A DNA stretch of 55,313 bases from a virus (taxonomy: Duplodnaviria > Caudoviricetes). Below the pieces are notes generated by a model. The model did no database searches. It worked only from the letters and a program-made list of their open reading frames with translations, and was not told the DNA's origin. The position numbers and the translations under genes were made by a program. Within the stretch, counting starts at the first letter, position 1. Each line of letters starts with the position of its first letter. This document shows, piece after piece, positions 9,093 to 46,910 of this stretch. The stretch spans positions 1 through 55,313 of the IMG/VR virus record IMGVR_UViG_3300044676_002656, one strand, 5' to 3'.

Positions 9093-9282
9093 CGGGGTCT
9101 CCTTCAAATTGCAACGCTTCTTTTAGTTCAGCGCGAAGGGTGCGAAGCATCGATAATTCACCCATCACGAATTTGTAGTCCTCCATTGTCTTTATGTTGC
9201 CACCGGTCAAAAACTCCACATGACCTTCTTCAAGCTTTTTAAGCTTATTAAATATGTATGATGCTAATGCGACTGCGTCCAT
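9085..9282 (-). CDS. Small hypothetical protein
   Basis: 65 aa, helical, coupled to both neighbours. Confidence 0.65.
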   Translation of the reverse strand: MDAVALASYIFNKLKKLEEGHVEFLTGGNIKTMEDYKFVMGELSMLRTLRAELKEALQFEGDPDE

Positions 9283-11471
9283 TAAAATACACCGCCCCCA
9301 TCACGCGGACCCGATGGACCGCCTGGAAGCGCGTCTTCATCGTAAGGTTTAGGTGGTTTTGGAGCACCAAGTCCTGCATAAGGTGCCAGCGGAGACATCG
9401 GCATTGGTTGTCCATACCCACCAAACTGAGTTTGCGGTATTGGGGATGTCGGCATTTGATAGCTTGGCGTGCTTGTTATGTTTGCGCCAGACTGCATTTG
9501 TCTAACAAAGTCTTCTCGCACCTTAGGATCATAAGATTGGCCAAGAATGTTTCTTGGAACAAACTGATCTCGCATACCCTTAAGCGGATCCATGTCAATA
9601 AAGGTAGGAGGCTTAGGAGCCGGTGATTCGGGTAATGGATCTGGCGCAGGCTGCACTGGCATATCTGGCAGTGTAGGCGCGGGGTCTGCACTTGTTGGCG
9701 GTTTCCAATCTGCGGGTTTGCTTCCTTGAACCCAACCCGGTGCAGGACTCCATCCTCCGCTTGACGCCATCCATTCTTCACCCGTTGTAGGGTTGTAGAA
9801 AGGAACCATAACCATCGTTGACGGTCCTCCAGAATGCGTAAAGCCTGGAGGTGCAGGTCCCGTTTTAGGTCCATCTCTTGGACCTTCTCCATATGGATAT
9901 CCTGGCGGCATATCGGGAGGCGTGGGCTCTTCAGTTCCAGATGTAAGCCACGAACTTTCAAAACTAGGATCTAATGCTTTGATTTGATTAGCCAGTGCTT
10001 GAAGTCCTTTCCAATGCTCTGGGCCAGGATCAACAATAAATCGCATTCCATCCATCGTTTCATATTGTTTTTTTAACCGATCAAGCTCGCTCATGTTTGG
10101 ATCAACATCAAATATAGGTGGGATCGTTGGAGCAGGTCCTTCACCCTCTTTTATTATGTCCGTTAATCCGCGCCCGTCTAAAATATCAGGAGGCGTGGGA
10201 GGTGTGGGCTCTGGGTCTTGTTGTTGTGGTTGAGAAAAATTAAATTGATTGTAATCATCCCCTTTGTACCCAAGCTTTGCTATAAATTCTTCAGGAGTAT
10301 AGGTGTTAGTAGCCGCATCTCCTTCAAAACCAAAAGCACTTACATCTTCAATAAAGGTGTTAGTCTTAGGATCGTAGCTTGAGGTTAGTTTAAAGTCTTG
10401 AGCACCTGGAGAATTGTTGTACTTGTCAACCAGTTGGTCAGCAGTAAAGTTTACTGTTTTAACTTCAGGCGAATAATCTTGGAATTTACCAACTTCTCCA
10501 ATTGCACTTAATAAACTTCTACCGTCCTTTCTAGCAAAGGTTTGATTCATAGCGTTAGAATCTAATTGTTCGCCAGTTCCAAATTGATTTCTTGCAACTT
10601 GATACAGGACGCTTTCATCTGTAATGCCGAGATTGCTCATCAATGCTTTAGTGTAATTAAGTTGTTTAGGCGTTAAGTCATTAAGGCTAAATGGTTTTTC
10701 TGCTGCTTTAGCATCGGCTGCTGCTTTAGCATCTGCCGCTTTCTTTGCATCGGCTGCTTTCTTTGCATCGGCTGCTTTCTTTGCATCTGCGGCTGCTTTT
10801 GCTTCTCTTATTCTTTTCGCTTCTTGTTGCCTTATTTGTAGCTGCTCGCCACGACGAAACAGCTCTCGTTCCTCAAGAATTCGTATTTGCTCTAATCTTG
10901 CAGCTTTCTTGATACCAGCTTGTTCAGCAGCTTTATTAGCCGCTGCTAATTCAGCTTTATCTGCAGCCGCTTTAGCTTCTCTTTCTTTTAAGGCTTTCGC
11001 AGCGGCAGCTTCTTTATCTGCACGCCTCTTCTCTGCTTCAGCTCTTTTTGCGGCAAGTTCTTCTGCTTTCGCCTTTGCTTCCGCAATCCTTTTGTCAGCA
11101 GCTTCTTTAGCCTTTTTATCCCTTGCTTTTTTGGCAGAAGCTTCTGCCATTTGTATCATTCTTCTTGAAGCATCTTCTCTTTGCTTTCTTGAATTAACTT
11201 CGGCCTCTGCCCTAGCTAACTCATTCGCTTCTTTTTGAGCGGCAAGCTTTAATCTTTTATCCTCAGCAGCCTGAGCGTTTTTTTGCTTTAGCTCTTTTGC
11301 AGCTTTATCTTTTGCAGCTTTGGCCTTAGCTTCTTTTTCTTTTTTCTCTCGAGCCTTTTTTGCTATTGCAGCATAGATAGCAGATGTTCCAGATCGAGAT
11401 GCCGGATTCCCAGTTTCTCTTTCTATGGACGATGGCTTACTTCTGCCTACTTGTTTTCTTCTTCCCGCCAT
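9282..11471 (-). CDS. Low-complexity protein with a Lys/Ala/Glu coiled coil and a Pro-rich C-terminus
   Basis: 729-aa ORF with TAATG coupling at both ends; AADAKK repeats. Confidence 0.7.
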   Translation of the reverse strand: MAGRRKQVGRSKPSSIERETGNPASRSGTSAIYAAIAKKAREKKEKEAKAKAAKDKAAKELKQKNAQAAEDKRLKLAAQKEANELARAEAEVNSRKQREDASRRMIQMAEASAKKARDKKAKEAADKRIAEAKAKAEELAAKRAEAEKRRADKEAAAAKALKEREAKAAADKAELAAANKAAEQAGIKKAARLEQIRILEERELFRRGEQLQIRQQEAKRIREAKAAADAKKAADAKKAADAKKAADAKAAADAKAAEKPFSLNDLTPKQLNYTKALMSNLGITDESVLYQVARNQFGTGEQLDSNAMNQTFARKDGRSLLSAIGEVGKFQDYSPEVKTVNFTADQLVDKYNNSPGAQDFKLTSSYDPKTNTFIEDVSAFGFEGDAATNTYTPEEFIAKLGYKGDDYNQFNFSQPQQQDPEPTPPTPPDILDGRGLTDIIKEGEGPAPTIPPIFDVDPNMSELDRLKKQYETMDGMRFIVDPGPEHWKGLQALANQIKALDPSFESSWLTSGTEEPTPPDMPPGYPYGEGPRDGPKTGPAPPGFTHSGGPSTMVMVPFYNPTTGEEWMASSGGWSPAPGWVQGSKPADWKPPTSADPAPTLPDMPVQPAPDPLPESPAPKPPTFIDMDPLKGMRDQFVPRNILGQSYDPKVREDFVRQMQSGANITSTPSYQMPTSPIPQTQFGGYGQPMPMSPLAPYAGLGAPKPPKPYDEDALPGGPSGPRDGGGVF
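10701..10800 (-). repeat. 18-bp coding tandem repeats (AADAKK)
   Basis: TGCATCGGCTGCTTTCTT units and variants. Confidence 0.8.
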
Positions 11472-12778
11472 TAGTACATCGCCTGCATATTAAATTTTGG
11501 CATTCCACCCATTATTGGTTGAGCGTAAGGATTGTAAGATTGCTGCTGTTGCGGCTGTTGTTGATTAAAACCGCCACCGTACATCCCGCCGCCATACTGC
11601 GGTTGTTGCATTTGTGGCTGACCGTACATACCACCGCCCATACCACCGCCGTACATACCACCGCCCATACCACCGCCGCCGTACTGTTGTTGTGGTGGTT
11701 GACCGTACATACCACCACCGTACATTCCGCCGCCCATCCCACCACCGAATCCACCACCGTACATTGGAGGTCTTTGGGGCTGGCCATACATGCCACCACC
11801 GCCGTACATGCCACCACCATATTGCGGTTGTGGTCTTGGGTACATCGGCGGTTGTGGATACATGGGTGGTCGTTGCGGTTGCTGACCGTACATGCCGCCG
11901 TTATATTGCTGTCCGTACAAAGGACCTCGAGGCTGTTGAGGCTGTGGGAATCTTTGTCGCCCACCGCCGCCAAATGGCCCTTGAGGTTGCGGCCTTTGTT
12001 GAGGCATTCTAGCTCTCGTATCTTGATATGGCATTTGACTTGGCATCGGACGTTGGGCGCCAAATATACCGCTTAAGAACTCTTTGCTTAGTCCGGACTG
12101 CGTTGCCTTCCGTTCATTCAGGTTCTCTTGCGAGGCTCCAGGAGGTTGGTAAAATTCTCCTCGCCCTTGAGGCGGATTATTCCCGCGCATTTGGTTTTGC
12201 CGGAAGGACTGGGAGTCAGCAACGCCTTGAGGGCGAATGGGAGATTGAGCCAATCCTGGAGGAGGCCCCATCATCGCTGGCTGAGCTCTTAGTACGGGTT
12301 CGTTATTCCCCATAGGAAACTGCGATCTAAATGAAGAACCATCGGAATTACGACCCTCGTACTGAGGGTTTGGAGAACCTCGCATTTGCCCAGTTTGTTG
12401 ACCTATGCGACCAAAAAGATCTTGAAGACCGCCGCCAAATCCACCGCCATTTCTTTGAAGGTTTCCGCCAAAAAGTTTTTTTAACGAATTGTATGGATTT
12501 TGCTGTTGAGGGCCTCTCGGAAACCCTTCAAGAGCTCCGCCCGTACCGCGTGGATTGAACACTTTAAATTCTGGATTATATCCAGGATTTTTATCGTAAA
12601 AACTATTTCTGTCGCTTTCGCTTAATCCGCTAATTTGTTCTTTAATTTTTTTATTAAAATCTATTCCTTCTTGTTCTGTAGGCATCCTAATGCCCCTACC
12701 GAACATATCGATACTTTCTTGGATACGTTCTAAAGGACTTAGATTTTGTTGAACAACAAAAGGACTAAACTGGCTCAT
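11471..12778 (-). CDS. Gly/Gln/Pro/Met/Tyr-rich, prion-like disordered protein
   Basis: 435-aa ORF with repeated GGMYGG and MYGQP; TAATG coupling. Confidence 0.7.
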   Translation of the reverse strand: MSQFSPFVVQQNLSPLERIQESIDMFGRGIRMPTEQEGIDFNKKIKEQISGLSESDRNSFYDKNPGYNPEFKVFNPRGTGGALEGFPRGPQQQNPYNSLKKLFGGNLQRNGGGFGGGLQDLFGRIGQQTGQMRGSPNPQYEGRNSDGSSFRSQFPMGNNEPVLRAQPAMMGPPPGLAQSPIRPQGVADSQSFRQNQMRGNNPPQGRGEFYQPPGASQENLNERKATQSGLSKEFLSGIFGAQRPMPSQMPYQDTRARMPQQRPQPQGPFGGGGRQRFPQPQQPRGPLYGQQYNGGMYGQQPQRPPMYPQPPMYPRPQPQYGGGMYGGGGMYGQPQRPPMYGGGFGGGMGGGMYGGGMYGQPPQQQYGGGGMGGGMYGGGMGGGMYGQPQMQQPQYGGGMYGGGFNQQQPQQQQSYNPYAQPIMGGMPKFNMQAMY

Positions 12779-12975
12779 TAGAATACGCCTTCGAAGTTCG
12801 TACCTCGTTGTGCCGCACCACCGCCTCGAGACTTACCTTTGCCCATACCAGGCTTAGGCGAAGCAGATGCCTCAACAGATTCAATAGACGCGTACTTAAC
12901 GCGGCCTTGATCCTTAACAGTGAATCCGCCTTTGTCTACTTTAGGCTCTTTAAAGCTTGTTGTTCTCTTAATCAT
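12778..12975 (-). CDS. Small basic protein with C-terminal RGGGAAQRG motif
   Basis: 65 aa, directly after the portal gene. Confidence 0.7.
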   Translation of the reverse strand: MIKRTTSFKEPKVDKGGFTVKDQGRVKYASIESVEASASPKPGMGKGKSRGGGAAQRGTNFEGVF

Positions 12976-12977
12976 GA

Positions 12978-15644
12978 TTAGTTCCCAAATATGTTTTTGG
13001 TCATTTTCTCAGCTACGTTAGCCATTTGTATAGACTCTTGAAGCTTTAGCCTATCTTGAGCAGTCTTATTCTTCATGTCAGCAATATCAGCCTGTAGATC
13101 CATACGCTCTTGATCCATTGAATAATCCTTCTCAATGCGTTCCTCGTCAAGTCCAAATCGCTGTTGAGCCTCCTTGGCCTTACGCTCTAAGTCCATAGAC
13201 TTAATGTTAAGTTCCTCTCGACGTAACTCAACAAGCGGGTCGTCGGAATCTTCTGCTTCAAAGATCGGAGCAACTTTCTCCATCAACTGTACGGTAATCT
13301 GTGCAACTTTAGCCTCAATCATGGCCTGCATAGGGTTAGGCGGCGGAGGTCCAGGTGGTTGCATTCCTCCCATCGGAGGTGGTCCCATCGGTGGTGGGGG
13401 TCCCATGGGAGCCCCTCCTTGTGGAGGCATCGCTGAAGGGTTGACGCCTGGAGGACCACTTGGAGGAGCACCCATGGGTCCGCCCGAAGGTGGAGGCCCC
13501 ATACCCGGAGGAGGCCCCATCATCTGCATTTGTTGTTGCATCTGCTGTACTTCTGGATCTTGCATCGCTTGCTGTCTGGCCATGAGATCAATGTGCTGGT
13601 AAACATGCGCTTGAATCATAGCGCGAAGCTGCGGGTTTGTCTTAACAACCGCAGAGTTATAAACCGTAATGTGCGACTCAATATGCGCTTCATGGTCCTG
13701 ATCTGGGAACGGTGTCGCAGGCTGCATCATCATGAAGTTTGCATTCTCCATAGCAGGTGCCATCGGCATAGGCTGTGGTGGAGGCGGAGGTGGTGGCAGT
13801 ATCTGCTCTACCTGCTGAACACCCATCGCTTCGTACATGCGCTTATAAGCATTGTACATTCCCATCGGACCATGGATCTCAGGATTAGACTGGACCATCT
13901 GCATCATTTCTTGAGCAAGCATAACGCGCTGACTCATAGAGAAAATGTTGGGATCACTGACCGGAATGATATCTATTCGGTCATCAAAGTCCTGCTGCTT
14001 AATCCCAGGATTACCATTAGCAATCATGTATGGATAGGCAGGCGGCAAGTAATCCTTAAAGAGCTTCGCAAGGAGGTTAAACTCAATACGCTGCGAATAA
14101 TGCAATCGCTTATGAATCGCGCTCATAACGCGGCTACCGCGCTCAAGCAACGCAATCGTTGTCCCGACCGGCGCTTCCTGATTACCATCACCTACCTGCA
14201 TATCACCAATTGAGGCGAACCGCTTACCGGCATCAACCAACATGCCAAGCAGGTTCAGGAGGGTGGCGCTTGGCTCTTTAAACGGCAGAGGCATTAGCGC
14301 ATCACGCAATGAGCCTCCCGGTGCATCCATATCTCGGAACTCGCCTGGCTGTAAAGGCGTATCCGCATCTCGAATACGAATGCCACGCGCTTTAAAACCA
14401 GCAGGAAGATTCGCTAAAGTTCCCGCATCAATCAACTGCCGGAGAATAGAGGTTGCCCCACGGGACAAACCACCGATCATATGCGTTAGACCGAAGCCGT
14501 AAAAACCCACACCAGGTAGAAACTTATACTGAACAAAATAATCAATGCGCTTACGCATAGGATCTTCTTGATTGTAGTTTCTGCGAATGGATAGAACTTG
14601 AGACTGAGACCGCGAAATGGTGACAATATACGGGAGCTTAATGCCCGTTTCTTCGCCCTCTGCATCAAGGTCTTCATACCCTGGGATCTCAAGATCAACG
14701 TGCATCTCAAGAATCTCACACTGGTCAGAATTGGAATTGCCAGATGGCTTAACGCCTTGGAGTTCATCAAGCTCCTCCTCAATCTCACTATCATTCAAAA
14801 AGCTAGATGAGCGTTCAGCAGCCTTTGACTTCTTGTAAAAACCAGCAGCTTGAAGCTTCTTAACGTCATTGATAGGCATATCAACAACGTGCGTAATCCG
14901 AACAGCATTGTCCAAGCTCGTTGCGCCATAAGGTACAACCAAGTCTTCAGATGGAATAAAACGCGATACAGGTCGATCAAGCGTCTGATCAAAGTGAACC
15001 TTGCGGAATGCACTACCCGACAGCGGGAGATAAAATAACATCTGATCAGTCTCAGGGTCATACTCGCGCATAACCTGAGTGATCTGGTAATTCATGTATT
15101 CCTGTACCCGCGCTGCCTGGAGGTCAGTCTGTGGCGTACCCATTCCTACGACTTGAGTCTTTACAGGACCCCCAGGCGGCAGCATTTCCTTATAAGCTTG
15201 CGCTTGGAACTGCGTGACGGATTCAGCAAGCAAAGGATGAACAATCCCAGAAGCACCCTCAAAAGGCTCGCTCCTGTCCTCAAACTTCATACCAAGGAAC
15301 TCTAAACCTTCCTTGTAAGTCTTCTCCCACTCTTGGCGAGAAGCCAAGTCAGACTTATAATCAGCAACACAATCATTGTAGATTCGGCCTAAATCAGCAC
15401 GATCAAGAACTTCAGCAAGGTTTTCATAAAAGTCTTCAACGTCCGTTCCCATCTGCACAGGAGGCGGCATGCCAATCAGCATGGTGCCGTCTTCAAGAGT
15501 CTCTATACCTTCTTCGTCATCAAAACCAGGGCCAAGGATCTCGTCAAAAGACTCATCCTCTACATCAATCTGGACCTCTTTCGAATTGTCTTCGATATCT
15601 AGCTCACTGATATCAACGTCATCGACACCGCGTTCAATAGCCAT
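12978..15644 (-). CDS. Portal protein (P22-like)
   Basis: HPLLAESVTQFQAQAYKE, LPLSGSAFRKV, FLPGVGFYGFGL, LRQLIDAGTLANLP; Pro-rich insert and coiled-coil tail; downstream of TerL. Confidence 0.88.
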   Translation of the reverse strand: MAIERGVDDVDISELDIEDNSKEVQIDVEDESFDEILGPGFDDEEGIETLEDGTMLIGMPPPVQMGTDVEDFYENLAEVLDRADLGRIYNDCVADYKSDLASRQEWEKTYKEGLEFLGMKFEDRSEPFEGASGIVHPLLAESVTQFQAQAYKEMLPPGGPVKTQVVGMGTPQTDLQAARVQEYMNYQITQVMREYDPETDQMLFYLPLSGSAFRKVHFDQTLDRPVSRFIPSEDLVVPYGATSLDNAVRITHVVDMPINDVKKLQAAGFYKKSKAAERSSSFLNDSEIEEELDELQGVKPSGNSNSDQCEILEMHVDLEIPGYEDLDAEGEETGIKLPYIVTISRSQSQVLSIRRNYNQEDPMRKRIDYFVQYKFLPGVGFYGFGLTHMIGGLSRGATSILRQLIDAGTLANLPAGFKARGIRIRDADTPLQPGEFRDMDAPGGSLRDALMPLPFKEPSATLLNLLGMLVDAGKRFASIGDMQVGDGNQEAPVGTTIALLERGSRVMSAIHKRLHYSQRIEFNLLAKLFKDYLPPAYPYMIANGNPGIKQQDFDDRIDIIPVSDPNIFSMSQRVMLAQEMMQMVQSNPEIHGPMGMYNAYKRMYEAMGVQQVEQILPPPPPPPQPMPMAPAMENANFMMMQPATPFPDQDHEAHIESHITVYNSAVVKTNPQLRAMIQAHVYQHIDLMARQQAMQDPEVQQMQQQMQMMGPPPGMGPPPSGGPMGAPPSGPPGVNPSAMPPQGGAPMGPPPPMGPPPMGGMQPPGPPPPNPMQAMIEAKVAQITVQLMEKVAPIFEAEDSDDPLVELRREELNIKSMDLERKAKEAQQRFGLDEERIEKDYSMDQERMDLQADIADMKNKTAQDRLKLQESIQMANVAEKMTKNIFGN

Positions 15645-15647
15645 TCA

Positions 15648-15977
15648 TTAGCCCCACTTGTTTTCCCACTTGGTTCCAAAACCCTTCTTCTTCTTGAACG
15701 TAATCTTGGGCTTTTTCTTTTTGACTTCGCCGCCGCGTTTGAATTCCGGAAACTTCATACGGGGATTGTCTTTCTCTGGGAACATTTCCTCAAGATCATC
15801 GTCTTTCTTGCCCTTCTTGATCATGATCATAACGGAACTTTTTCTCTCAGGCATCTCTTCCGTTAGGTAATCCATAAGATCACCCTCATTCTCTCGAAGC
15901 TCTTCAAGCAAAGACTCATCTTCAGAGCCCTCAAGCAGGCGCATGACCTTCTTGTACATATCAGAGTTAGACTTCAT
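15648..15977 (-). CDS. Small protein with acidic N-half, FKRGG motif and basic C-half
   Basis: 109-aa ORF between the conserved hypothetical gene and the portal. Confidence 0.65.
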   Translation of the reverse strand: MKSNSDMYKKVMRLLEGSEDESLLEELRENEGDLMDYLTEEMPERKSSVMIMIKKGKKDDDLEEMFPEKDNPRMKFPEFKRGGEVKKKKPKITFKKKKGFGTKWENKWG

Positions 15978-15980
15978 AAA

Positions 15981-16655: not shown

Positions 16656-16657
16656 GC

Positions 16658-17983
16658 TTAACGCATAGCCCTGCCAAACCCTCGTTTAGCGGCACCGACC
16701 CCGCGAGCACTCTTCTTCTTTACAGTGCCGCCGTTCTTGTAACCAGGCGCCATCTTGCCGCCCATCTTGCCACCTTTCGAAGCCATCTTGCTCTTCATGG
16801 CCGCACCGCCCATGTTCATGCCGCGTGGCGTACTACCACCTGACCGGCGTCCTGCGGCACCGCGCATGGCCATTGCCTTCTTAGCAGCAGCAAGTTTTTC
16901 TTCTCGAGGTCCGGATCGTCCTACAGGTGCTCTTTTTCCTGCCGAAGCATTTAGCAAAGCCATGCGTTGAGCAGCACTTAGACCAGAAGCAGTGCCGCGT
17001 TGTTGTGTCGCAGCAGAAGGAAGAGCGCCAAGCTTTGTTGTGTCAATCGGCTTCATACCAACTGCACCACCCATGTTCATGCCGCGTGGCTTTGCTCTTT
17101 TACCTTTACCCATGCCGCCTTTTGCGCCAGCTCGCTTGCCAGGCGCATAACCGTACTTATCAGAAAGATCCTGGATAACACTCGTAGACTGCTTACTGCC
17201 CTCCCGTCCTTGAACAGAATCAAGAAGCCGTCTTTGGGCCGGACTTAAAGTAGCTCGGCTTTGAGCGCGTGTCTTTGGTGGAACCGTCTTCGTTCCGCCG
17301 CGAATAGGTGAGCCACCACCTGTAACGCCTGGAGCTGTTCGCTTAGACATACCTACCGCACCTTTATTTTTCATCATTCCGCCTGCTTGTTTTTTTACGG
17401 GAGCTTTCTTCTTGTTTCGGAGAAAGTCAATCATTCCGCGCTCACCACCAAATTTTTCATCATCACCCAACAACGCTCGGGCAATAACACCACCGAAAGG
17501 ACGGAACTTTGCATCCTTTCCAAATATCAATCCGCGCTTCTTACCCTTAGTATCAACCTTGGGAACAACACCTTTACCAGTTGCCTTCTTGGCAATATCC
17601 TCGATCTCCTTATCGGTGATCTCAACCTTAGGATCCGTCTTCTTCCGAGCCTTAATTACTGCCGCAATTCGACGATCAATATCAGCCATTTCTTCATCAG
17701 TAATGCTTTTTGCGGAAGACTTGGGTTTTTTTAGAGCAGCATCAAGCGCAGCAGTCCTAGAATTATTAGAAGTGTTGTCGAAACTATCATCACTCTTGTA
17801 AGTCGGCTTCTTAGGATTGTCTTTCTTAGGCTTAAAAAGAGAAGAATCAGCCATAGCGGCAGCTCTTGAGGAGCTAGAAGTGTTGTCAAAATTATCACCC
17901 ATCTTGTACTTGGGTTTGTTCAGAGAAAGCTTTTCTTCTTTTCGTTTTTTAACTCTTGCTGTCGCCCTTGGATCTGCTGCCAT
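16658..17983 (-). CDS. Highly basic Lys/Arg/Gly-rich protein; putative internal DNA-binding core protein
   Basis: 441 aa with several xxxGG motifs and C-terminal RGVGAAKRG. Confidence 0.65.
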   Translation of the reverse strand: MAADPRATARVKKRKEEKLSLNKPKYKMGDNFDNTSSSSRAAAMADSSLFKPKKDNPKKPTYKSDDSFDNTSNNSRTAALDAALKKPKSSAKSITDEEMADIDRRIAAVIKARKKTDPKVEITDKEIEDIAKKATGKGVVPKVDTKGKKRGLIFGKDAKFRPFGGVIARALLGDDEKFGGERGMIDFLRNKKKAPVKKQAGGMMKNKGAVGMSKRTAPGVTGGGSPIRGGTKTVPPKTRAQSRATLSPAQRRLLDSVQGREGSKQSTSVIQDLSDKYGYAPGKRAGAKGGMGKGKRAKPRGMNMGGAVGMKPIDTTKLGALPSAATQQRGTASGLSAAQRMALLNASAGKRAPVGRSGPREEKLAAAKKAMAMRGAAGRRSGGSTPRGMNMGGAAMKSKMASKGGKMGGKMAPGYKNGGTVKKKSARGVGAAKRGFGRAMR

Positions 17984-18004
17984 GATCGTGTCCTTATCTC
18001 GAGA

Positions 18005-19745: not shown

Positions 19746-19816
19746 TATCTGTTATTGTTTAGCTCTGTTATTCAATAAAGGATAACAGTTAATCAAAGCA
19801 ATTAAGGAAGTTTAAT

Positions 19817-23738: not shown

Positions 23739-23944
23739 TCAATTGTGACATATGCGGTACAGACACCAACGATGAAAAATCAAAGTGCGTCACTCACTCA
23801 GATTGGGTGGCGCATGGTGAGACTATGCCAAGCTGGATCTGCAACACTTGTTACACAAAAGGTGACTACGGTGACTTCGAAGACTTGATTCAGACAAGAA
23901 TAGGCAATGCAGAACTGCTGAGGAGGATGAATGAAAGTCCTTGA
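23735..23944 (+). CDS. Small Zn-binding protein
   Basis: CDIC...CNTC; ATGA overlap. Confidence 0.6.
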   Translation: MINCDICGTDTNDEKSKCVTHSDWVAHGETMPSWICNTCYTKGDYGDFEDLIQTRIGNAELLRRMNESP

Positions 23945-39100: not shown

Positions 39101-40222
39101 AGATGAAGCTATCTCTTTATCAAGGCTTTCAAGAATGCTTCTTGCTTGCTGTCTGACAAGCTCTCGACTTACAGTCTTACCGCCTATCGTTCTGGGTTCA
39201 GCAAACATAAAGTCATTGAGAGCGTTTAATGCATATCTTTCATCTTCAGCGTTAAGCTTGCCAGCCTTCTTTAACGACTTTAATCCATTGTCTATTTCTT
39301 CAAAGCTGTTTCTTGCAAACTGATTGTCAGAAGATACTTGCTGCAACTTTATAGCATCAAGCTGCTTTGCCACTTCATTTGGCATTTTGCCCTGAAACGT
39401 AAAGTTATTCTTTAACTTAGAGTATGCCTTATCAATCATTCTCTTTCGAAGTTGAGGATTTTCTAATCCCGAATTAACTCCAGTTAGTTTGTATAAGGTT
39501 TCCTTATCTTTGACTGCACTCAATGCGCTTTCAGCTTTTTGAGCAGCCTTCTGAGCCATTGAAGTTCTTGAAACTGCGTCAGCAGTAGCGCCAATTCCAG
39601 CGCCAGCTAAACCTAGAATTTTTGGAGCACCAAGAACTATAGCTGCACCTTCAGCAGCAACCTTTAGCCTGTTGGTTAGTTCTGCAGCAGCTCTTTCAGA
39701 TCCTTCTAACTGATCCGTATCTATTCTTTTGGTAGGTCCTCCATCAAAAAAGTCACCGAGAGTCTCAACGTCAGGCGTTGTTGCCAGTACATCAGCAGCG
39801 CCAAACGCGCCAAGTTGTCCTGCTTTACCCAGCTTGTATGCTTTGGCAGCTTTTGCAGCTAGTCCGCCTGGAACGGCGAACTGAGTAAGAAATTTAACAG
39901 CTTCACCTAAGCCGGTTGATGTTGTTGGCTTGAACTGCGAATAAAACTCTCTAACCGTTTCTGCTTGGTTTGTTTCTCCATCAGAAACGAAATCAATTAT
40001 CTCCGCAGGAAAGCTTGCAAGTCCTTCAACCGCGCCAACCAATCCAGCGCCTATGGCTCTAGCTATTTCTCCTGGAGCGGAAACATCTTCTTCACCGAAT
40101 TCAACTGCTCTTTCCTGTATAGGATTGTTGTCGTAAAAATTTTGAGCAGATTTTAAAGCAAAAGCTTTATCATCCGTATCGACATCAACTGATCTTCCGT
40201 CAGGCAAATCTACAGTAATCAT
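36134..40222 (-). CDS. Large internal virion / DNA ejection protein
   Basis: 1362 aa, helical; last of the ejection-type cluster; KTVYSPITQIRN, VKDTVPNY, PLGNFIAFPAEIIR. Confidence 0.65.
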   Translation of the reverse strand: MITVDLPDGRSVDVDTDDKAFALKSAQNFYDNNPIQERAVEFGEEDVSAPGEIARAIGAGLVGAVEGLASFPAEIIDFVSDGETNQAETVREFYSQFKPTTSTGLGEAVKFLTQFAVPGGLAAKAAKAYKLGKAGQLGAFGAADVLATTPDVETLGDFFDGGPTKRIDTDQLEGSERAAAELTNRLKVAAEGAAIVLGAPKILGLAGAGIGATADAVSRTSMAQKAAQKAESALSAVKDKETLYKLTGVNSGLENPQLRKRMIDKAYSKLKNNFTFQGKMPNEVAKQLDAIKLQQVSSDNQFARNSFEEIDNGLKSLKKAGKLNAEDERYALNALNDFMFAEPRTIGGKTVSRELVRQQARSILESLDKEIASSDMKSLFGKKDYSLLRSAEDFRGYIDNLSTSLSKEDQFLDPDLNKALVKAIGETNQKYYGTRLYRTIKSSQEYVPSMEQIKAAQEEIIEASRQAGDELTPDQALSQLNVMRSNVQFSNAKMKPNMMFEEETLKGVKQGVLKNKKLDNLPAIRDFLGEYSGGSDVIGRVRKNGSSYEDGVIRQRSLEEQRIGLRTKAVETVDVISKQLSQASYFKNLLKYNDSLPPESKFILDNVQITRPEDLGAYSRIGFSSPDPTGEITESMKMRFGPLAGKYVKKDYLRALEDAKTTLGDGPLNKLYATFLGIKGMSQVAKTVYSPITQIRNATTAAFFALKNGNFGNGETLLNSMQTVLSQIGQRKVGEGLSLPRSNAKAGSKQAIDEYYRKMIELGIVNSNAKMGEFESLFKDALQAKSGVLGGNIMRKVLSAAENTQNRFSGKLYQGSDDVWKIYSYEMELGRLRDAFSKSPTNIPVTDARNIIDLQQSGLTPSQLKGDQLENFLQREAAEIVKDTVPNYARVPEFIKTLRKAPLGNFIAFPAEIIRTSGNVIGRSIKELASESPEIRSIGMRRLMGSLAVDGGIAGGLSASAMMLTGSSQEQVDAFKRSFAQDWEKNATLIPIASDKDGNVTEVYNFSYTNPYDYLTKPARAAFNAVNNGITAEKDLSNIALDAAWESSGEFFSPFFSESIITEKILNLGRNKNAYGGQIYNDADPLGLKISKGFAHFAEGLTPGISPISLKGDVSSPAYIGYDVKDFPRAIGQALGADAMSGVNKRGVRIDAAGKFVEALSGVKTIKLDIEKTLQYRGYEAARQVREASRIFNQIAKSRGNVEASAVTKAYILANEQRFKALRDLSVAIDDAEKLGIDKSSIYKSLSKAKTPHIPELFAKQFVPFFPSSQTISEAIRSDSNKVSNPFDMTAIGSSLADFSKMRYTPKAVEERQQQMAQPPSFIMPPPMPGAVPPPSPPPPQSLFNRGIEALRDIELDKLMGS

Positions 40223-42165
40223 TAGGTTGCGGAAGCTCCTGGCAATGTGACTCTAGGTTGAGATCCCACACCAGATGTACTAGGATCTGCCTTTTTCTCT
40301 CCTCCATAAGTAGAATTTACAGTATCTTCTATTTGTTCAACGGTCCCAGGCTTAAGTTGACCGGTATTTGAATCAACTAACAAAGGGTTTTTGTAAGCGG
40401 CTGTAAACAAGCTGGCCCTGAAGGCTTCTTTACCGTCTGAGGACTTCAGTAAAAGACTTAAAGCTTCTTCGTCTTTCATTCCTGGGTTTATAGATTTTAT
40501 AAGCTCATAGTTCTTTTCCATAGCCGTCTTGCCAGCCTGCTCATAATTCTTAAGCTTGGCCTGCTCAATCTCATAGTCCCGCCCACCTTCGTATACATCA
40601 GCAACAAAGCTTCTAGGAACAAAGCCTTCTGTAGGTTTAGAGGCTCTTATCAAGCCAGCTCGAAGCTTCTTATCTGAAAGAAGACCGCCAATAATATCAC
40701 CAGTTTTAGAAAGAAAGCTGGGTTCTGGCGGCGTTGGTGGTGGTTCCGTTATCGAAGCTTCTGCATCAGCAGCAGCCTGGGCAGCAGCAGCCTGGGCAGC
40801 AGCAGCTGCTTGAGCATCTATTGCCGCTTGATCTACAGCCTCTTCGTCGTCGCCAAAAAGGTTTGCAACAGTAAGTGCTATTGTTCCCGCTCCTCCTACA
40901 CCTCCGACGGTTAATGCAGCTTTCTGTTTTGTTGTCAGTGGCGGTTTGGCTAATGCTTCTATGCCACCTCTTGCTGCGCGTGTACCGCCTGCTGCTACGG
41001 CAGCTCGCTCCGAAGAAGAGGCCATAGGGATTACATTTCCAGAACTATCAAGAGGTATGCCTGGGTCTTGCATCTCGACATCGGGTCTATCTCCAGATCT
41101 AACTCTTGGTCTAGGAGCGCCAGGATCAAGCATCTCTATACCACGCCTAGCACTAGGATCCATCATCGGAATATCGGGAGGAATCAAGTCATCTGCGCTT
41201 CTCATAACATCATCTTGAACGTCAGGAATGTTATCAAAAGGGCTCCTGCCTCCTGCACCAAGAGATTCTTCAGCACTTCTAATAACATCATCTTCAAACT
41301 CAGGAATATCATCACCAGCTCTTCTTACATTTGCCGGTGACAAAACGCCGCCCATATCATCTATTCCTCCCTTAATACCGGCAGTGCCTTGTATAAGGTC
41401 CTCGGGAAGGTCAAGACTTCTTGCATCTTCAGCGTCAATCTCGCCCCGCTTCAACGCATCAAGCGTCTTTTCAATCCAAGGGCCACCTGATTTCTTAAGG
41501 AAGAGTATGCTATCGATTAAAACACCGCCAAGAGATCCTCCCGCAAACTTAGGAACGATTGATGCAATGCCACCATTCGCAAATCCTTGAGCGGCCATTA
41601 CCTGAGCGGCAAAGTCATCGCCATATGATTCAGCGACTCTTGCTCTAATAGCATCAGGATCTGGCTTCTGTCGAAGGTTGCTAATAGCACTAGCAACTTC
41701 CATAACTTCATCTGAAAACTGCGGTTCTTCATCTTCAAATAACCTTGGAACTTCTCCGGCAAGCCTAACGCCTTCAAACGCTCCAGCAGCTTTAGCGCCT
41801 GTACCGGCGGCGTCTTTTAAGGTGTCAAACTTTTCCATTTGATTTACAAGCTTGGATCCTTTGACGCCAGCCTTCATTAGTTTTGCAGCAGCATAGGCTG
41901 GCGGAAACGAAAGAAGCCCCATGGTCATATAATCAAGAGGGTCTGACGGATCAAAGATAATGTTAGTCAAGTCTCGAAGGTTCATTCCAGAACCTTGCTC
42001 AGTCTGCTCCATAGAAAAGAAGTCTTCGGCAACAAGACCGCCATCTTCAAACCCTTGAACAGGCGCAACACCCGCCATGATGCCGCCACCTTGGCGGGTC
42101 TGCGGTGTCTGGAACATAGGACGGTCATAAATTTCTGGACGGTACATCATATCTTGTCGGTTCAT
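40222..42165 (-). CDS. Putative internal virion / ejection protein
   Basis: 647 aa; FEDGG, FANGG and FAGG motifs; one Gly/Ala hydrophobic segment. Confidence 0.6.
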   Translation of the reverse strand: MNRQDMMYRPEIYDRPMFQTPQTRQGGGIMAGVAPVQGFEDGGLVAEDFFSMEQTEQGSGMNLRDLTNIIFDPSDPLDYMTMGLLSFPPAYAAAKLMKAGVKGSKLVNQMEKFDTLKDAAGTGAKAAGAFEGVRLAGEVPRLFEDEEPQFSDEVMEVASAISNLRQKPDPDAIRARVAESYGDDFAAQVMAAQGFANGGIASIVPKFAGGSLGGVLIDSILFLKKSGGPWIEKTLDALKRGEIDAEDARSLDLPEDLIQGTAGIKGGIDDMGGVLSPANVRRAGDDIPEFEDDVIRSAEESLGAGGRSPFDNIPDVQDDVMRSADDLIPPDIPMMDPSARRGIEMLDPGAPRPRVRSGDRPDVEMQDPGIPLDSSGNVIPMASSSERAAVAAGGTRAARGGIEALAKPPLTTKQKAALTVGGVGGAGTIALTVANLFGDDEEAVDQAAIDAQAAAAAQAAAAQAAADAEASITEPPPTPPEPSFLSKTGDIIGGLLSDKKLRAGLIRASKPTEGFVPRSFVADVYEGGRDYEIEQAKLKNYEQAGKTAMEKNYELIKSINPGMKDEEALSLLLKSSDGKEAFRASLFTAAYKNPLLVDSNTGQLKPGTVEQIEDTVNSTYGGEKKADPSTSGVGSQPRVTLPGASAT

Positions 42166-42172
42166 TTTCCTA

Positions 42173-44158
42173 TCATCCCCTGTTCTGCCATTGATTCCAA
42201 AGATCTAGACCTTGGCCTGCTAATCCTAAGTAACCAGCAACCTTGCCTGCGGTCCCTGGGTCTTGATAAGCCCCAACTTGATTAGACTGAGTGCCATACC
42301 CGCTTGAGTATTGCGGCAAGTATCCAGCTAATCCGCCAAGCATTTGCTGGCCACGCTGTAATCTCATGTACGGCTCATCAGCCATCTGTGTCGCAGCAGT
42401 GTATTGATTGCCGTAAGCGCGATCCTGAATGCCTCGACCTGTCTGTCCAAGCCCTGCCATGGTTCCGATCTGACCTGTAAGCATGTTGTATCCTTGCTGA
42501 CCAAGTCCGGCAATACCCGCAGCGCCTCCTCGTTGTGCAGATCCACTTGCGCCGTATGCGTCAAGGGCGGTCCCATACTGTTGTTGAGTCTGACCGAACA
42601 TACCGCTTGCTGCGCCTTGCATCCTACGCATTTGGTCTTCATAACTGCCCATGCCCATCTGTTGAGCTTGCCCGTACTGAGAGGCCATGCCTTGACCAAT
42701 GTCTGCACGTTGGCCAGCAGCGCCTATTTGAGCGCCAATACCTTGCATGCCAAGCTGACCACGTTGAGCAGCAGAGCTACCGATATCTCTACCAGCTTGC
42801 ATCCCAGCCTGACCTTGAGATTGAGCCGTGCTAAATGCTTGTTGACCCAACCGCGCTTGAAGTTCCGCTGTAGAGATACCCATGTCGGCAGCTTGCTTAG
42901 AAAGTTGAGCTTCATTCAATTTGCTTGTCATGCCAAGCTGACCGCCTTGAAATGCGCCAGACTGAGCCAGCTCTTCCGCAGATAAGCCCAAGTTTCCTGC
43001 CGCTTGCGCTGCTTGTAATCGAGTTGCTGCGCCAGCTTGGCCAAGGGACGATGTCAGTTGTCCAAGGTTTTGCTGACGGCCTTGAGCTTGCTCAAAGGAT
43101 TGCTGCGCTTGTTGCGCCGCTTGCTGATAGCCTTGAGATCTTAATTGAGCACCAGTTTTAGCCTGCTGCTGCAAGATATTTCTACCGATCTCAGCTTGCT
43201 CAATGCCGCCTCTAGATCCACCAAAAGCACCAGATTGAATGGCTTGAGCTTTTGCCTGCTGCCTCTGCTTGTTGCCAAGCCTTTCAATCTCTGCTTGTTC
43301 GGCATCGATTACGTTTTGAGTATACGGATCCATAAACCTATCAATAGTAGATGGATCAAATTGAGCACCGGTTCCTTTTAATGCCGCTATGCCTTCTTGA
43401 GCATATTTTCTAGATGATTCGCCAGCACTCTTTAATTCTCTTCCAGCTTGAGCTGTTTGGGCTCTTGCTCTTGTTGTCGCATCTAAAGCTCTTTGTTGAG
43501 CGGTTCCAACTTGAGATCCTATGCCGGAAGCTGCTGATCTTATATCAGCCTGCCCTGTTCGTGATTCAGAACCTGCCATTCGAGCGGAATCTAACGCCAT
43601 TCTCTGAGCTATCGCAGCTTCATCCGCAGAGCTTGCAGCGCCTTGTCTAATTAAATCTTCACCTTCTCTCATGTCAGCTTGAGCAAGATTAATTTGCCCA
43701 GGTATTTCTCTAGAAAGATCACCTAACTCTTGAGATGCACCTCGCATCATTGATCGCCCTTCGGCGTCGAGAAACTGTTGCCCCATGGTTGGATCATAAG
43801 CGCCAATGCTTTGCATATACAAAGCTCGAGCTTGAGGATCTCCATAAATCCCAGCCGTTCTGGGATCGAATGCTTGTCCAGACTGACGATACATTCTTTC
43901 CGCTTCAGCAAGCTGGCCACCAAAACCACCAAGGCCTTGAGCCATATTCCTAGCTTGAATCTCAAGCGGAGAAAGACCAGCGACTTGCTGAATCGGAATG
44001 GGAATCTGCTGGCTTATTAAACCTGGTTGATCAGGCGTTCCGAAGTAACTCGCCAAAAGGTTCCTTGAGGTAAGCTCTACCGCAGGATCATAATACTGCT
44101 GCGAAGCACTCGGAAGAACATATGGTTGTTCCTGATCAGTTAATACTGTTTCACTCAT
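42173..44158 (-). CDS. Gln/Ala/Gly-rich ejection (pilot-like) protein
   Basis: 661 aa; FMDPYTQNVI...GAFGGSR; helical. Confidence 0.62.
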   Translation of the reverse strand: MSETVLTDQEQPYVLPSASQQYYDPAVELTSRNLLASYFGTPDQPGLISQQIPIPIQQVAGLSPLEIQARNMAQGLGGFGGQLAEAERMYRQSGQAFDPRTAGIYGDPQARALYMQSIGAYDPTMGQQFLDAEGRSMMRGASQELGDLSREIPGQINLAQADMREGEDLIRQGAASSADEAAIAQRMALDSARMAGSESRTGQADIRSAASGIGSQVGTAQQRALDATTRARAQTAQAGRELKSAGESSRKYAQEGIAALKGTGAQFDPSTIDRFMDPYTQNVIDAEQAEIERLGNKQRQQAKAQAIQSGAFGGSRGGIEQAEIGRNILQQQAKTGAQLRSQGYQQAAQQAQQSFEQAQGRQQNLGQLTSSLGQAGAATRLQAAQAAGNLGLSAEELAQSGAFQGGQLGMTSKLNEAQLSKQAADMGISTAELQARLGQQAFSTAQSQGQAGMQAGRDIGSSAAQRGQLGMQGIGAQIGAAGQRADIGQGMASQYGQAQQMGMGSYEDQMRRMQGAASGMFGQTQQQYGTALDAYGASGSAQRGGAAGIAGLGQQGYNMLTGQIGTMAGLGQTGRGIQDRAYGNQYTAATQMADEPYMRLQRGQQMLGGLAGYLPQYSSGYGTQSNQVGAYQDPGTAGKVAGYLGLAGQGLDLWNQWQNRG

Positions 44159-46089
44159 CGTGACATCCCCGCAGCTTTTTCGCCCATCTTCTGAAGCGCA
44201 TACATAGCCCGTGCGCCTTCTCGTCTTTGATCGTGTTTGCCGCCATCAGCGCCCATCATATCGCCTATTCCTCGAACTGCTTTAGCGTTAACAACAAACT
44301 CACCATCGCTTAACATGGCGGGAATGTCATCAGATCTTTCAGTGCCAGGGCCGGATATTTGTCCGTTCTTTCTTGGAAAGTCAGTAGATCCACCTGCGCT
44401 AAATCCAGCAATACTACCTAAAGATCCGATACCGCCAATCCCTAACTCGCCAAGTCCTCCCCCGCTGATTTCTGAAATAGACCTATCAAAATCTTTTTTT
44501 CGTTGTTCCCATTCATCTAACGCGGTTTCGTATTCTTTTTGAGAAGCCATCTGACCTCTTCCGCTAAAAGGCGGAAAGTCAGACCGGACAGGTTTAGGAT
44601 AAATGGATTCATAGTAATCGTCTGTTTGAATCTCAACATCAGAATCGATGTCGTCTCTCGGTAAGCCCGTGTCGTCTCTCGGTAAGCCCGTGTCCGTGTC
44701 TCCAGGGGGCGTTGTCGTGCCGCCACCTGTCGTGCCGCCACCTGTCGAGGGTCTTTGATAAGTTGTTAAAGGACCAGAGCTTTGCAACGGTCTGCCACCG
44801 CCATAGTTTGCATACTGCATACCCTCAAGACCTTGATAGTTCATACCGTAAGGCGTGATCTCGCCCGAAGGTAGAAAGCTAGAGATGCCTCTGTATCGAG
44901 AATCCATTGTTTGCAAAGGACTTGGCGCAAACCGCTCAAAGTTTGCAGGATCGTTATAAACATTCATAGCCGCATTACGAGCAGCTAACTGCAAATCTGT
45001 GGGTTGAGTTTTATCTGTCGGCATAGTTGTGCCTCCTCCAGTTTGAGTTCCAGATCTATTCCCGCCGGAAGGCAAGTCTGGCCATTGAGGTATGTATACT
45101 GTCTCGTCATTAGGGCGTTGATCGTTAGGGCCATCCCTTCGATCTATTGGGTCATTAGGAGTCCCGCCACCTGTACCACCACCTGTGCCATTGTCTATAG
45201 GACCGGTTGTGGTGCCTCCGCCTGTACCATTATCTATAGGGCCAGTGGTCGTACCACCGCCAGTTCCATCTCCTACTGGTTCAGGATCAGGCGTGGGTGT
45301 CGGTGTGGGTGTAACGGGCGCAGTGGGTGGAGGATCAGGGTCAGGCGTAGGCGTAGGCGTAGGCGTAGGTGTCGGTGTAGGCGTGGGTGTGCCACCACCG
45401 CGAGGATTGCCGCTACCTGGTAATGGAAACGTTGGAAATCCACCACCTGGAAAGTTAGGGATCCCGCCTATCTGAATGTTACCTTCGCCTCCAAAGAATC
45501 TTTTTGCCCAAGCGGCAAGTCTTTCTAGAAAATTTGCGTCATCTTCTCCAGGCTCTTTTACCGGTCTTTCTTCGTCCTTAGTAACCGGGCTGGAGAAGTT
45601 ATCAGTAACAGCAGGGTCACTTGCCTGATTATTTTGTGCGATAAAGATGCTCATCGCTTTTTGAAATTCAGAACGCTCTTCGTCGCTTATTTCGCCATCC
45701 TCATTACGATCAAAGTCGCTAATCTGAGGGCCTTCATCAAAGTTAATATGGCTAAATGGCATATCAACGTTCAATGGAAGTTGTCCGCTACCGGTAAACT
45801 GTGAAGCGTTGGGGACGCCTAGTGTACCGCCAATGTTTCCTAAGCTTGCACCTGGCAGTCCGCCAAAAAAATTTCCCCAGGTTGAAGATCCAGCGATATC
45901 AGAAAAACCCCCAATTCTTCCGATATCGCTAGTTCGTAAAGAGCCTCCTCCCACAATGCCACCCCCAATTATAGAGCCACCGCCAAGGTTTGCCATTCGA
46001 CCCGAAGAACTTAAATTTGGCGTTCCGCCAAGGTGACTACCAATATGACCACCAGCCATCATCTTTATAGGTAACTTACGAATGCTCAT
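44155..46089 (-). CDS. Gly/Pro/Thr-rich putative ejection protein with EF-hand loop and C-terminal GPGT-SD-IPAMLSDGEFV domain
   Basis: 644 aa; PT repeats; motifs read directly from the translation. Confidence 0.65.
   Translation of the reverse strand: MSIRKLPIKMMAGGHIGSHLGGTPNLSSSGRMANLGGGSIIGGGIVGGGSLRTSDIGRIGGFSDIAGSSTWGNFFGGLPGASLGNIGGTLGVPNASQFTGSGQLPLNVDMPFSHINFDEGPQISDFDRNEDGEISDEERSEFQKAMSIFIAQNNQASDPAVTDNFSSPVTKDEERPVKEPGEDDANFLERLAAWAKRFFGGEGNIQIGGIPNFPGGGFPTFPLPGSGNPRGGGTPTPTPTPTPTPTPTPDPDPPPTAPVTPTPTPTPDPEPVGDGTGGGTTTGPIDNGTGGGTTTGPIDNGTGGGTGGGTPNDPIDRRDGPNDQRPNDETVYIPQWPDLPSGGNRSGTQTGGGTTMPTDKTQPTDLQLAARNAAMNVYNDPANFERFAPSPLQTMDSRYRGISSFLPSGEITPYGMNYQGLEGMQYANYGGGRPLQSSGPLTTYQRPSTGGGTTGGGTTTPPGDTDTGLPRDDTGLPRDDIDSDVEIQTDDYYESIYPKPVRSDFPPFSGRGQMASQKEYETALDEWEQRKKDFDRSISEISGGGLGELGIGGIGSLGSIAGFSAGGSTDFPRKNGQISGPGTERSDDIPAMLSDGEFVVNAKAVRGIGDMMGADGGKHDQRREGARAMYALQKMGEKAAGMSR
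44649..44747. repeat. Coding tandem repeats (21 bp x2, 15 bp x2)
   Basis: TGTCGTCTCTCGGTAAGCCCG at 44649 and 44670; TGTCGTGCCGCCACC at 44713 and 44728. Confidence 0.85.
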
Positions 46090-46425
46090 TTAACACTTCC
46101 ATCGGCGTCTTGCTTGACGCAATCTAGAGTTTGGGTTTCTCGCTGCTTTCGGAAACTGCTTCATCTGTCCAGCGGACCTCGCGCAATATGATTTTCTTCT
46201 AGCTGCTCTCTTGCCTGTAGGCTTGCTTTCTGTAACAGCGGTTTGCAATTTACTACCAGGATTAGCGCGTTTATGCGCTCTAACCCCAGCTTCTGTCATG
46301 CCAGCGCCTTCTTCCGTCTTTCGGTAGTTAGGTTTACTACCAGAAGTAGTGCGCCTAATCGGCCTGCCTCTATTCTTCTTAGCAGCACCACCTACCCTAA
46401 AGTTTTGCACATGACGCTTAAACAT
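46090..46425 (-). CDS. Small basic protein (DUF6321-like)
   Basis: NPGSKLQTAV...RRKSYCARSAG...NSRLRQARRRWKC. Confidence 0.7.
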   Translation of the reverse strand: MFKRHVQNFRVGGAAKKNRGRPIRRTTSGSKPNYRKTEEGAGMTEAGVRAHKRANPGSKLQTAVTESKPTGKRAARRKSYCARSAGQMKQFPKAARNPNSRLRQARRRWKC

Positions 46426-46910
46426 TAAGAATACCTTGTCTTCTTTCTTCTATCCGGCATAACAGCACCGCAGCCTCGATGATTACTTTTAGTGAAGAAC
46501 CCGCCATCTTTTGCTGTCCTGTACTGCTTAGTCTTATCAGCAATCTTCTTAGGCTGTGATGAAAACTGCTTGCCAGCTTTTGTATCCTCTCTTTTAGCCT
46601 TAGTCGTTGCCGCATACTCTTGGCTCGATAGCGCCTGTCTTGCTTTCCTAGGCAAGTACCGCTCACCGGTAGCTTTAGGTCCCTGCGTAGACGGCTTGCC
46701 AGACTTTGTTCCCCAATCCTGCTTGCTCCACTGAGAAAGCTTGTTACTACTTTTTTTCTTCGGGCCTGAGTAAGTACCACCAGAACCTTTGTAATACTTT
46801 ACAGCAAGTTGCATTGCTCGAGCAGAGTGTTTGCCACCCATCTTAGCCTTGGCTCTGGACTTAGCTGCCGCCCACTTCGCTGGATCTTTTTTGGTTGCTG
46901 TAGCTGTCAT
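46425..46910 (-). CDS. Small basic protein (DUF5872-like)
   Basis: HSARAMQLA...GGTYSG...LSQWSKQDWGTKSG...ERYLP. Confidence 0.7.
   Translation of the reverse strand: MTATATKKDPAKWAAAKSRAKAKMGGKHSARAMQLAVKYYKGSGGTYSGPKKKSSNKLSQWSKQDWGTKSGKPSTQGPKATGERYLPRKARQALSSQEYAATTKAKREDTKAGKQFSSQPKKIADKTKQYRTAKDGGFFTKSNHRGCGAVMPDRRKKTRYS

Follow-up and report, generated by a model that had tools for sequence, protein, structure and literature searches.

The window analysed here, IMG/VR record IMGVR_UViG_3300044676_002656, is a whole single-contig genome assembly of 55,313 bp from an HTVC023P-like marine podophage, that is, a phage with a short tail. Its portal protein is 51–53% identical to those of the Pelagibacter phages HTVC027P and HTVC023P, and 44% identical to those of the Roseobacter phages CRP-901/902. 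Structural genes lie in two minus-strand arms, with the replication genes between them. We found that otherwise unrelated proteins encoded in these arms share a short Gly-Gly element with the consensus (G)-[FYML]-x-x-G-[G/D]-x-[VIA], in which a bulky residue stands at −3, Val, Ile or Ala at +2, and often Gly at −4. Judged by how it is kept among related sequences, this element is a genuine short linear motif. It recurs at leaders, tails and cassette joints, and proteins with the domain DUF6321 carry it almost only when they are encoded in the ejection block; it is therefore an add-on at module borders. The reading that we prefer, tentatively and with a probability of about 0.45, is that the motif serves as an uncut beta-turn docking or joint handle. 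Its carriers, at least six unrelated and largely disordered proteins, are probably loaded into the head and leave it before the DNA does, a virion location that we infer.

Form and conservation of the motif

An initial annotation of this genome had proposed that a looser pattern, [FYMAK]-x-x-G-G, is shared by many head and ejection proteins and had listed 13 strings as examples. All 13 were recovered at the open reading frames (ORFs, named below by their first coordinate) when the coordinates were re-translated. The pattern as first written is, however, present at chance level against a Gly-matched background. Across the 41 structural-arm ORFs there are 147 Gly-Gly run starts, and 36 of them have [FYMAK] at −3 where 36.6 were expected; the class makes up about a quarter of all residues. 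Restricting it to [FYM] gave 13 sites against 15.0 expected. Plain shuffles did yield an excess of the loose motif (45 observed, 33.8 expected), because Gly-Gly itself is over-represented (184 versus 142.2 expected). What was borne out, for the narrower form of the motif, is the idea that one short signal is common to proteins of the head-proximal and ejection blocks that are not related in other respects.

The evidence for the narrower form comes from orthologues. We sampled 240 related IMG/VR loci in the neighbourhood of the terminase, capsid and 47355 genes, and the resulting alignments cover 36 structural-arm families. Gly-Gly sites of the narrow form fell in conserved islands in 10 of 14 cases, compared with 7 of 25 for the sites fitting only the initial pattern and 15 of 85 for all other Gly-Gly sites (narrow class versus other sites, Mann-Whitney p = 9e-5). 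The expectation that the listed strings persist inside divergent orthologues held for 10 of the 13, namely FKRGGEV, KQAGGMM, MNMGGAV, MNMGGAA, YKNGGTV, FEDGGLV, FANGGIA, FSAGGST, FRVGGAA and AKDGGFF. It failed for FAGGSL, kept in 0 of 12 orthologues, and for MMAGGHI, kept in 18% of 38, while RDGGGVF is kept in 3–4 close relatives of 4. At several sites the Gly-Gly pair is retained well above the identity of its flanks: 94% versus 56% at KQAGGMM, 89% versus 53% at FSAGGST, 83% of 12 orthologues versus 5% at FANGGIA, and 93% of 15 orthologues versus 44% in the 46425 family. Where copies stand in tandem they are spaced 8–12 residues apart. The distant relative HTVC027P has like sites in gp47, gp82, gp84 (at residue 9) and gp42.

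Carrier proteins

The carriers were said to be otherwise non-homologous, and all-against-all BLASTP agrees: the sole relation is a 25-residue tail common to the 15648 and 16658 products, where the tail of the former resembles the C-terminus of the latter at 48% identity. Coordinates of the carriers and of the main neighbouring genes are collected in Table 1.

The clearest case of a portable leader is the 40222 product. Its motif FEDGGLV occupies residues 39–45, directly after the best-conserved 25 residues of the protein, and sequence divergence starts right after it. The leader was found in 120 of 120 database representatives, at the N-terminus in 59 and internally, behind an extra PF20106 domain, in 61. 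Body similarity beyond the motif, by comparison, was absent in 4 representatives, shorter than 100 residues in 24, 100–300 residues long in 62 and at least 300 residues long in 30. Five loci (L098, L102, L109, L116 and L138) have an extra N-terminal domain of 45 residues, and it is joined to the PMFQTPQ leader by a further copy of the motif, GMNQGGMMY. The FEDGGLV site reads Gly-Gly in 64 of the 120 representatives, Gly-Asp in 52 and something else in 4; Gly-Asp variants are present in the 44155 family too.

A second leader belongs to the 46090 product, which Pfam assigns to DUF6321 (PF19846; 44.6 bits against a cut-off of 28.5) over residues 40–109. The motif is at residues 9–15, so that the leader lies outside the domain. 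In this family the leader follows MF[RK]R..[EQ]EF-x-x-GG-x-[VA], with the x positions varying freely. DUF6321 was found in 126 phage records, 84 of them cyanophages by name, and the matches begin at residues 22–42, that is, without the leader. In a comparison of loci L082–L242, 29 of 33 with the gene in the ejection block carry the tag, as against 2/33, 0/7 and, for HTVC027P, 0/1 where a relative encodes the DUF6321 gene elsewhere, in the head block.

In the first arm, the 441-residue protein encoded by ORF 16658 belongs to a mosaic family: copies of the motif mark the joints between cassettes, and the stretches between copies are gained and lost; one cassette deletion spans directly from copy to copy. 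The strict motif occurs 2.70 times per protein in this family, where 0.66 would be expected with Gly fixed (120 cluster representatives). The gene is hypervariable, with at most 84% identity at loci where the terminase is 99–100% identical (L002–L007), and it has alternative N-terminal halves. The protein had no Pfam or PHROG match, no match in 50,697 phage records and no annotated relative. It had been suggested to be a polyprotein of DNA-condensing peptides; we found no support for this. All 10 distinct orthologue sequences of the 15648 family have the motif in the form [FM]-[KN]-[RK]-GG-[EA]-V, and Lys-rich tails follow the motif in both the 15648 and 16658 products. Several motifs had also been placed at compositional boundaries. 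Among the 13 sites examined this is clear only in the 15648 ORF (net charge −1 before the motif and +10 after it) and in the 46090 ORF (+2 and +7). The 9282 product has only 4–5 orthologues, its RDGGGVF end is kept in the close ones alone, and we consider it a doubtful member of the set.

Table 1. Motif-bearing proteins and structural genes in the window, with the positions of individual motif copies in parentheses
Coordinates	Strand	Product	Motif and sequence features	Family or arm
5517..8640	−	Head module without recognisable protease	360-residue acidic coiled-coil protein, 160-residue unknown, 209-residue decoration-like protein, 302-residue major capsid protein	
8649..9107	−	GroES-like co-chaperonin	Loop GVTDGGIVL (residues 61-69); motif pattern inside a folded protein	Pfam Cpn10
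9282..11471	−	729-residue Ala/Lys-repeat, Pro-rich protein	Terminal RDGGGVF (9285-9305)	
12778..12975	−	65-residue basic protein	Conserved island PKPGMGKGKSRGGGAA, a looser relative of the motif	
12978-15644	−	SU10-type portal		First arm
15648..15977	−	109-residue protein	Acidic N-terminal part, FKRGGEV (15723-15743), Lys-rich tail ending GFG	
16658..17983	−	441-residue basic mosaic protein, isoelectric point 10.9	KQAGGMM (17372-17392), MNMGGAV (17060-17080), MNMGGAA (16799-16819), YKNGGTV (16721-16741)	
18005-19483	−	Terminase large subunit		First arm
40222..42165	−	647-residue acidic protein	Leader PMFQTPQ..GIMAGVAP closed by FEDGGLV (42031-42051); FANGGIA (41563-41583); unconserved KFAGGSL (41530-41550)	
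44155..46089	−	644-residue Gly/Pro/Thr-rich protein	Weak N-terminal MMAGGHI (46042-46062); FSAGGST (44383-44403) abutting tape-measure-type module (44254-44382)	
46090..46425	−	111-residue protein, isoelectric point 12.0	Leader MFKRHVQNFRVGGAA (motif 46381-46401) and DUF6321 module	
46425..46910	−	161-residue basic protein	AKDGGFF (46494-46514) before conserved RGCGAVMPDRRKKTRYS end	

Link to tape-measure proteins

Residues 544–625 of the 44155 product match six tape-measure PHROGs (E = 4.5e-8 to 4.7e-4) as well as the tape-measure sequences 8zdo_S (E = 2e-8) and 8rk3_A (E = 1.1e-5) in the PDB. A tblastn search with this module found it in 157 phage records, and most among the matches listed lie within tape-measure genes. 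The module, GPGT..SD.IPA.LS.GEFV, is preceded by [FYL]-[AS]-x-G-G. The 44155 product thus shares a module with tape measures and is not itself one, because the portal and adaptor are of the type seen in SU10-like podophages and searches of the genome ORFs with Pfam and PHROGs gave no tail tube or sheath family.

The C-terminal 125-residue part of the 44155 product was predicted by AlphaFold2 as a monomer with a mean predicted local distance difference test (pLDDT) score of 56.9, and about 50 in the invariant module. The predicted monomer is consistent with a disordered module, as expected if it folds on a partner. A three-copy prediction of the same 125 residues scored 0.02 against a mark of 0.42, which reads neither way. 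The accessible parts of the tape-measure structure papers on lambda, T5 and JBD30 assign no function to the module, and the JBD30 structure, as far as described there, resolves only the last 33 tape-measure residues, leaving the module unseen.

The motif recurs in two well-studied tape-measure proteins. The Gly-rich region of lambda gpH has three copies, FATGGF, YATGGY and RDGGLF. From this region gpH loses about 14 kDa, with site and catalyst given as unknown, and its residues 818–849 are ordered on gpI (PMC12617516); RDGGLF falls within this ordered segment. T5 pb2 is reported to be cut after R1127 (PMC10038345), where the sequence reads FVPR|AEGGMMYPG. Searched against these two sequences, the module profile reached only the GEFV stretch of gpH (E = 0.006 in this two-sequence search) and nothing of note in pb2. 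The likeness to T5 and lambda rests therefore on the short motif and not on homology. Tape measures such as lambda gpH and T5 pb2 and, probably, the carriers here leave the virion through the tail before the DNA. The two classes differ in that the podophage has no tail tube to measure, and in that at least six of its proteins have the motif, often as an N-terminal leader or in tandem.

A proposed docking handle, or a generic turn

In the reading that we prefer, two hydrophobic residues would flank a tight Gly-Gly or Gly-Asp turn that folds only on binding. The handle would connect the variable body of a protein with its portable leader, tail or cassette, and it would dock the carriers to a common partner or to each other, either during procapsid loading or while they queue in the portal–tail channel. 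The same element is present in tape-measure proteins of siphophages, within their Gly-rich C-terminal region, and these proteins exit the virion by the same route. The turn structure, the docking and the partner are what we infer here, whereas the motif itself, its conservation, its place at module borders, the connection to tape measures and the lack of a recognisable protease are observed. Gly-Gly and Gly-Asp are both turn-formers, and the same pattern occurs at conserved Gly-Gly sites of three folded proteins of this genome, the capsid protein (LAYGGTL), the terminase (LQPGGTI) and the GroES-like protein (VTDGGIV), which speaks for a turn.

The cargo proteins of Bacteroides phage crAss001 are described as large and partly unfolded; they are stored in the head and the tail, leave before the DNA, and have different short segments docked on portal and tail-barrel proteins (PMC10172136, Bayfield et al. 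2023). That text mentions neither the motif nor cleavage, and the likeness drawn here to the present carriers is not one of sequence.

The occurrence in folded proteins also suits a rival reading, namely that there is no shared function and the motif is a generic turn or "sticker" of Gly-rich disordered proteins, conserved locally in each protein and partly selected by eye as a pattern. The chance-level count of the loose motif and the only modest excess of the refined one speak for this reading, as do the loose consensus between families and the neighbouring 435-residue ORF, a run of MYGGG repeats. It is harder to reconcile with profiles built across families: when the tested family was left out and Gly-Gly was fixed, 8 of 9 sites ranked 1–3 among 114–138 Gly-Gly sites, a result inflated by sites having been picked partly by look. 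Nor would it account for the repeated position of the motif at module borders and fusion joints, for the tagging of DUF6321 only in the ejection block, or for the recurrence in tape-measure proteins. We consider a motif with no shared function rather unlikely.

Several further observations weigh against a docking handle, besides the selection of sites just described. The refined pattern [FYMLIVW]..GG.[VILAM] was seen 18 times in the structural arms against 11.4 expected with all Gly fixed, a number reached by 35 of 1000 shuffles, and twice in the 23 middle-block ORFs against 2.7 expected; this is a weak enrichment within a single genome, for a pattern chosen after looking. The orthologue counts are non-independent events. 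The consensus is loose: in the 46425 family the bulky residue is often at −4 (FAKDGG), the strict pattern fitting 5 of 31, and KQAGGMM has Lys at −3. No binding partner was found, nor a structure with the motif bound, and the literature on HTVC023P-type phages, in the portions accessible, holds no virion proteomics that would place the 15648, 16658, 46090 and 46425 products in virions. Finally, the cut in T5 pb2 lies directly beside such a motif and that in lambda gpH somewhere within the Gly-rich region, which makes processing a live rival.

Cleavage as an alternative

The initial annotation took xxxGG to be a cleavage or loading signal and cited as a precedent the core proteins of adenovirus and African swine fever virus (ASFV), which are cut after Gly-Gly. 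A loading signal would come close to the reading that we prefer. In its broader form, the cleavage explanation makes the motif a signal for proteolytic processing: a host protease, or an unrecognised or autocatalytic activity, would cut the tagged proteins at the motif or next to it, so that leaders, tails or cassettes would be freed during assembly or after ejection. In its favour are the pb2 cut (PMC10038345), after which the next residues are AEGGMMYPG, and the loss of about 14 kDa by gpH (PMC12617516) from a region with three copies. In addition, a leader that is the best-conserved part of its protein and stops at one fixed short motif is what cleaved targeting peptides typically look like, and F, Y, M or L at −3 would suit a chymotrypsin-like cut before x-x-G-G.

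It had been noted that no prohead protease is recognisable, and Pfam and PHROGs over all 64 ORFs confirmed this; no peptidase family appeared in these searches except the self-cleaving fibre chaperone PF13884. The same searches found no adenain-clan cysteine protease. No T4-type prohead protease gene was found in the head module, where the 209-residue protein is decoration-like, and no C39 peptidase family was found in the genome ORFs.

The sites themselves do not look like maturation sites of the proposed kind. The adenain-type consensus is (M/L/I)-x-G-G\|x, with Met, Leu or Ile at P4. At the 10 conserved sites here P4 is K, Q, N, N, K, E, A, S, R and K, so that Met, Leu or Ile occurs in 0 of 10, and the bulky residue would fall at P5 if the cut followed Gly-Gly. 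The invariance of an adenain-type Gly-Gly is also missing at the FEDGGLV site, given Gly-Asp in 52 of 120 representatives. The likeness to the sites of the adenovirus protease and ASFV pS273R is that Gly-Gly with an upstream hydrophobic residue occurs in virion core proteins. The differences are the register of that residue, the tolerated Gly-Asp, the lack of such a cysteine protease and the fact that the mapped phage cut comes before Gly-Gly. Cutting at copies 8–12 residues apart would release tiny peptides, and sites cut after Gly-Gly seldom have a conserved residue at +2, as these do. In T5 the residue before the cut is Arg rather than a bulky hydrophobic one. The RDGGLF copy of lambda is uncut and lies in an ordered segment (PMC12617516), and the main text of the crAss001 paper, as available, contains neither "cleav" nor "proteoly" (PMC10172136). 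Taken together, the Gly-Asp tolerance, the 8–12-residue spacing, the conserved +2 residue, the lack of a protease and the position of the T5 cut favour an uncut docking or joint handle over processing. A cut after Gly-Gly as first proposed is not supported, and processing at or beside the motif by any enzyme seems to us unlikely.

Two other systems with cleaved leaders invite comparison. The internal proteins of T4 have a leader with Leu/Ile-x-Glu at its end, and the gp21 prohead protease takes this leader off. They resemble the 46090 product in being small and basic, with a short conserved N-terminal leader set apart from the functional module. They differ in that neither such a protease nor such a site is present here. 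Double-glycine bacteriocin leaders carry hydrophobic residues at −4, −7 and −12 and are cut by C39 peptidase domains. Like them, the 46090 family has a short amphipathic N-terminal leader ending in Gly-Gly (MFRRYAEEF-x-x-GG), but its hydrophobic residues are at −5, −9 and −12, many copies of the motif are internal or C-terminal, and no C39 domain was found.

Resemblance to the GroES mobile loop

The phage's own GroES-like protein suggested a third alternative, in which the motif would imitate the mobile loop of GroES and so bring host GroEL to disordered cargo. This protein reads GVTDGGIVL at the position expected for the GroEL-binding loop of E. coli GroES, and among 36 orthologues 92% keep the Gly-Gly of the loop. 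Tags of the form GG-I-A-x-L or GG-[IL]-[AM] occur in several cases, and GroES is listed among the 13 core genes of the HTVC023P type (PMC9599517). Most tags, however, read GG-x-V with a polar x and do not have the three hydrophobic residues. The tape-measure proteins of lambda and T5 carry the motif as well, and neither phage is known to have a GroES gene. We regard mimicry of GroES as highly improbable.

Possible generality

No description of the motif was found in our literature searches, and the accessible texts of the HTVC023P-type paper (PMC9599517) and the crAss001 paper (PMC10172136) do not mention it. How podophages choose and load the proteins that they inject is known for a few model phages only, and it is an open question how the tape-measure proteins of lambda and T5 come to be cut. 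With a shared tag, injected proteins could be sought by sequence in marine phages that have not been cultured, mutagenesis and mass spectrometry would have a defined target, and tape-measure processing might be linked to the loading of ejection proteins. A bolder version would make the motif a general "address label" of proteins expelled before the DNA, covering podophage ejection proteins, crAss-like cargo and siphophage tape-measure C-termini. Such a label might be read by some conserved feature of the portal–tail channel or the tail tip, and might also mark the place where the tape measure is cut in T5 and lambda. We hold this version to be rather doubtful. Were it true, injected proteins would be predictable from sequence, and the site and mechanism of gpH cleavage could be tested directly.

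Genome context and neighbouring genes

The first arm contains the terminase large subunit, an SU10-type portal with adaptors, the GroES-like gene, the 360-residue acidic coiled-coil protein and the 302-residue HK97-type capsid protein. The second arm (36134–55293) encodes four large unannotated proteins, two small basic proteins, a PHROG "virion structural protein", a lysozyme and a repeat-rich fibre. The 47355 product had a single PDB sequence match, 9nwi_Y, labelled "Capsid and scaffold protein" (E = 6e-7).

Within the head module, the 360-residue protein is likely the scaffold, going by its acidic coiled-coil sequence. No family was found for it or for the 160-residue ORF, the latter resembling only unnamed viral clusters in the ESM Atlas. 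The 209-residue protein (6437–7066, minus strand) adjoins the capsid gene, probably starts at Met8 and is predicted to have an all-beta fold (pLDDT 77). The solved chains nearest to its model (E about 0.005–0.2) come from HFTV1, Sf11, TW1 and Pam3 and are proteins that decorate or stabilise the capsid. These matches are weak but consistent, and the predicted structure resembles a capsid-decoration protein. PDB sequence searches with the 209-, 224- and 360-residue ORFs returned nothing useful.

Upstream of the portal, with a tagged gene on either side, is the 224-residue ORF, which encodes an acidic, Cys/His-rich protein (15981–16655, minus strand). Its matches are PHROG 3704, labelled ferredoxin, and ESM Atlas clusters of viral proteins that bear the automatic name "putative PurM" (score 0.90); it had no Pfam or PDB match. 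A protease role was considered for this ORF and dropped after the family, PDB and ESM Atlas searches. Between the portal and the GroES-like gene lies the 435-residue protein (11471–12778, minus strand), which is 20% Gly, with MYGGG, GGGM and QPQ repeats and a prion-like composition. It was absent from the list of the initial annotation despite nine matches to the loose motif, and has orthologues in four loci only.

The replication block includes a C-5 cytosine DNA methylase (23931–24863, plus strand), a PAPS-reductase-domain protein (27304–28110, minus strand) and a DUF3310 protein (28107–28313, minus strand). At the ends of the window, the first 127 bases (1–127) are repeated exactly at 55089–55215. 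A fibre ORF at 2–1300 runs past the window start and an ORF at 52648–55311 runs past its end, both on the minus strand and with repeats in common (100% identity over 52 residues). The two ORFs probably belong to a single tail-fibre gene, rich in repeats, that was divided at the point where a circular or permuted genome was opened; its terminal domain is the PF13884 (Peptidase_S74) chaperone.

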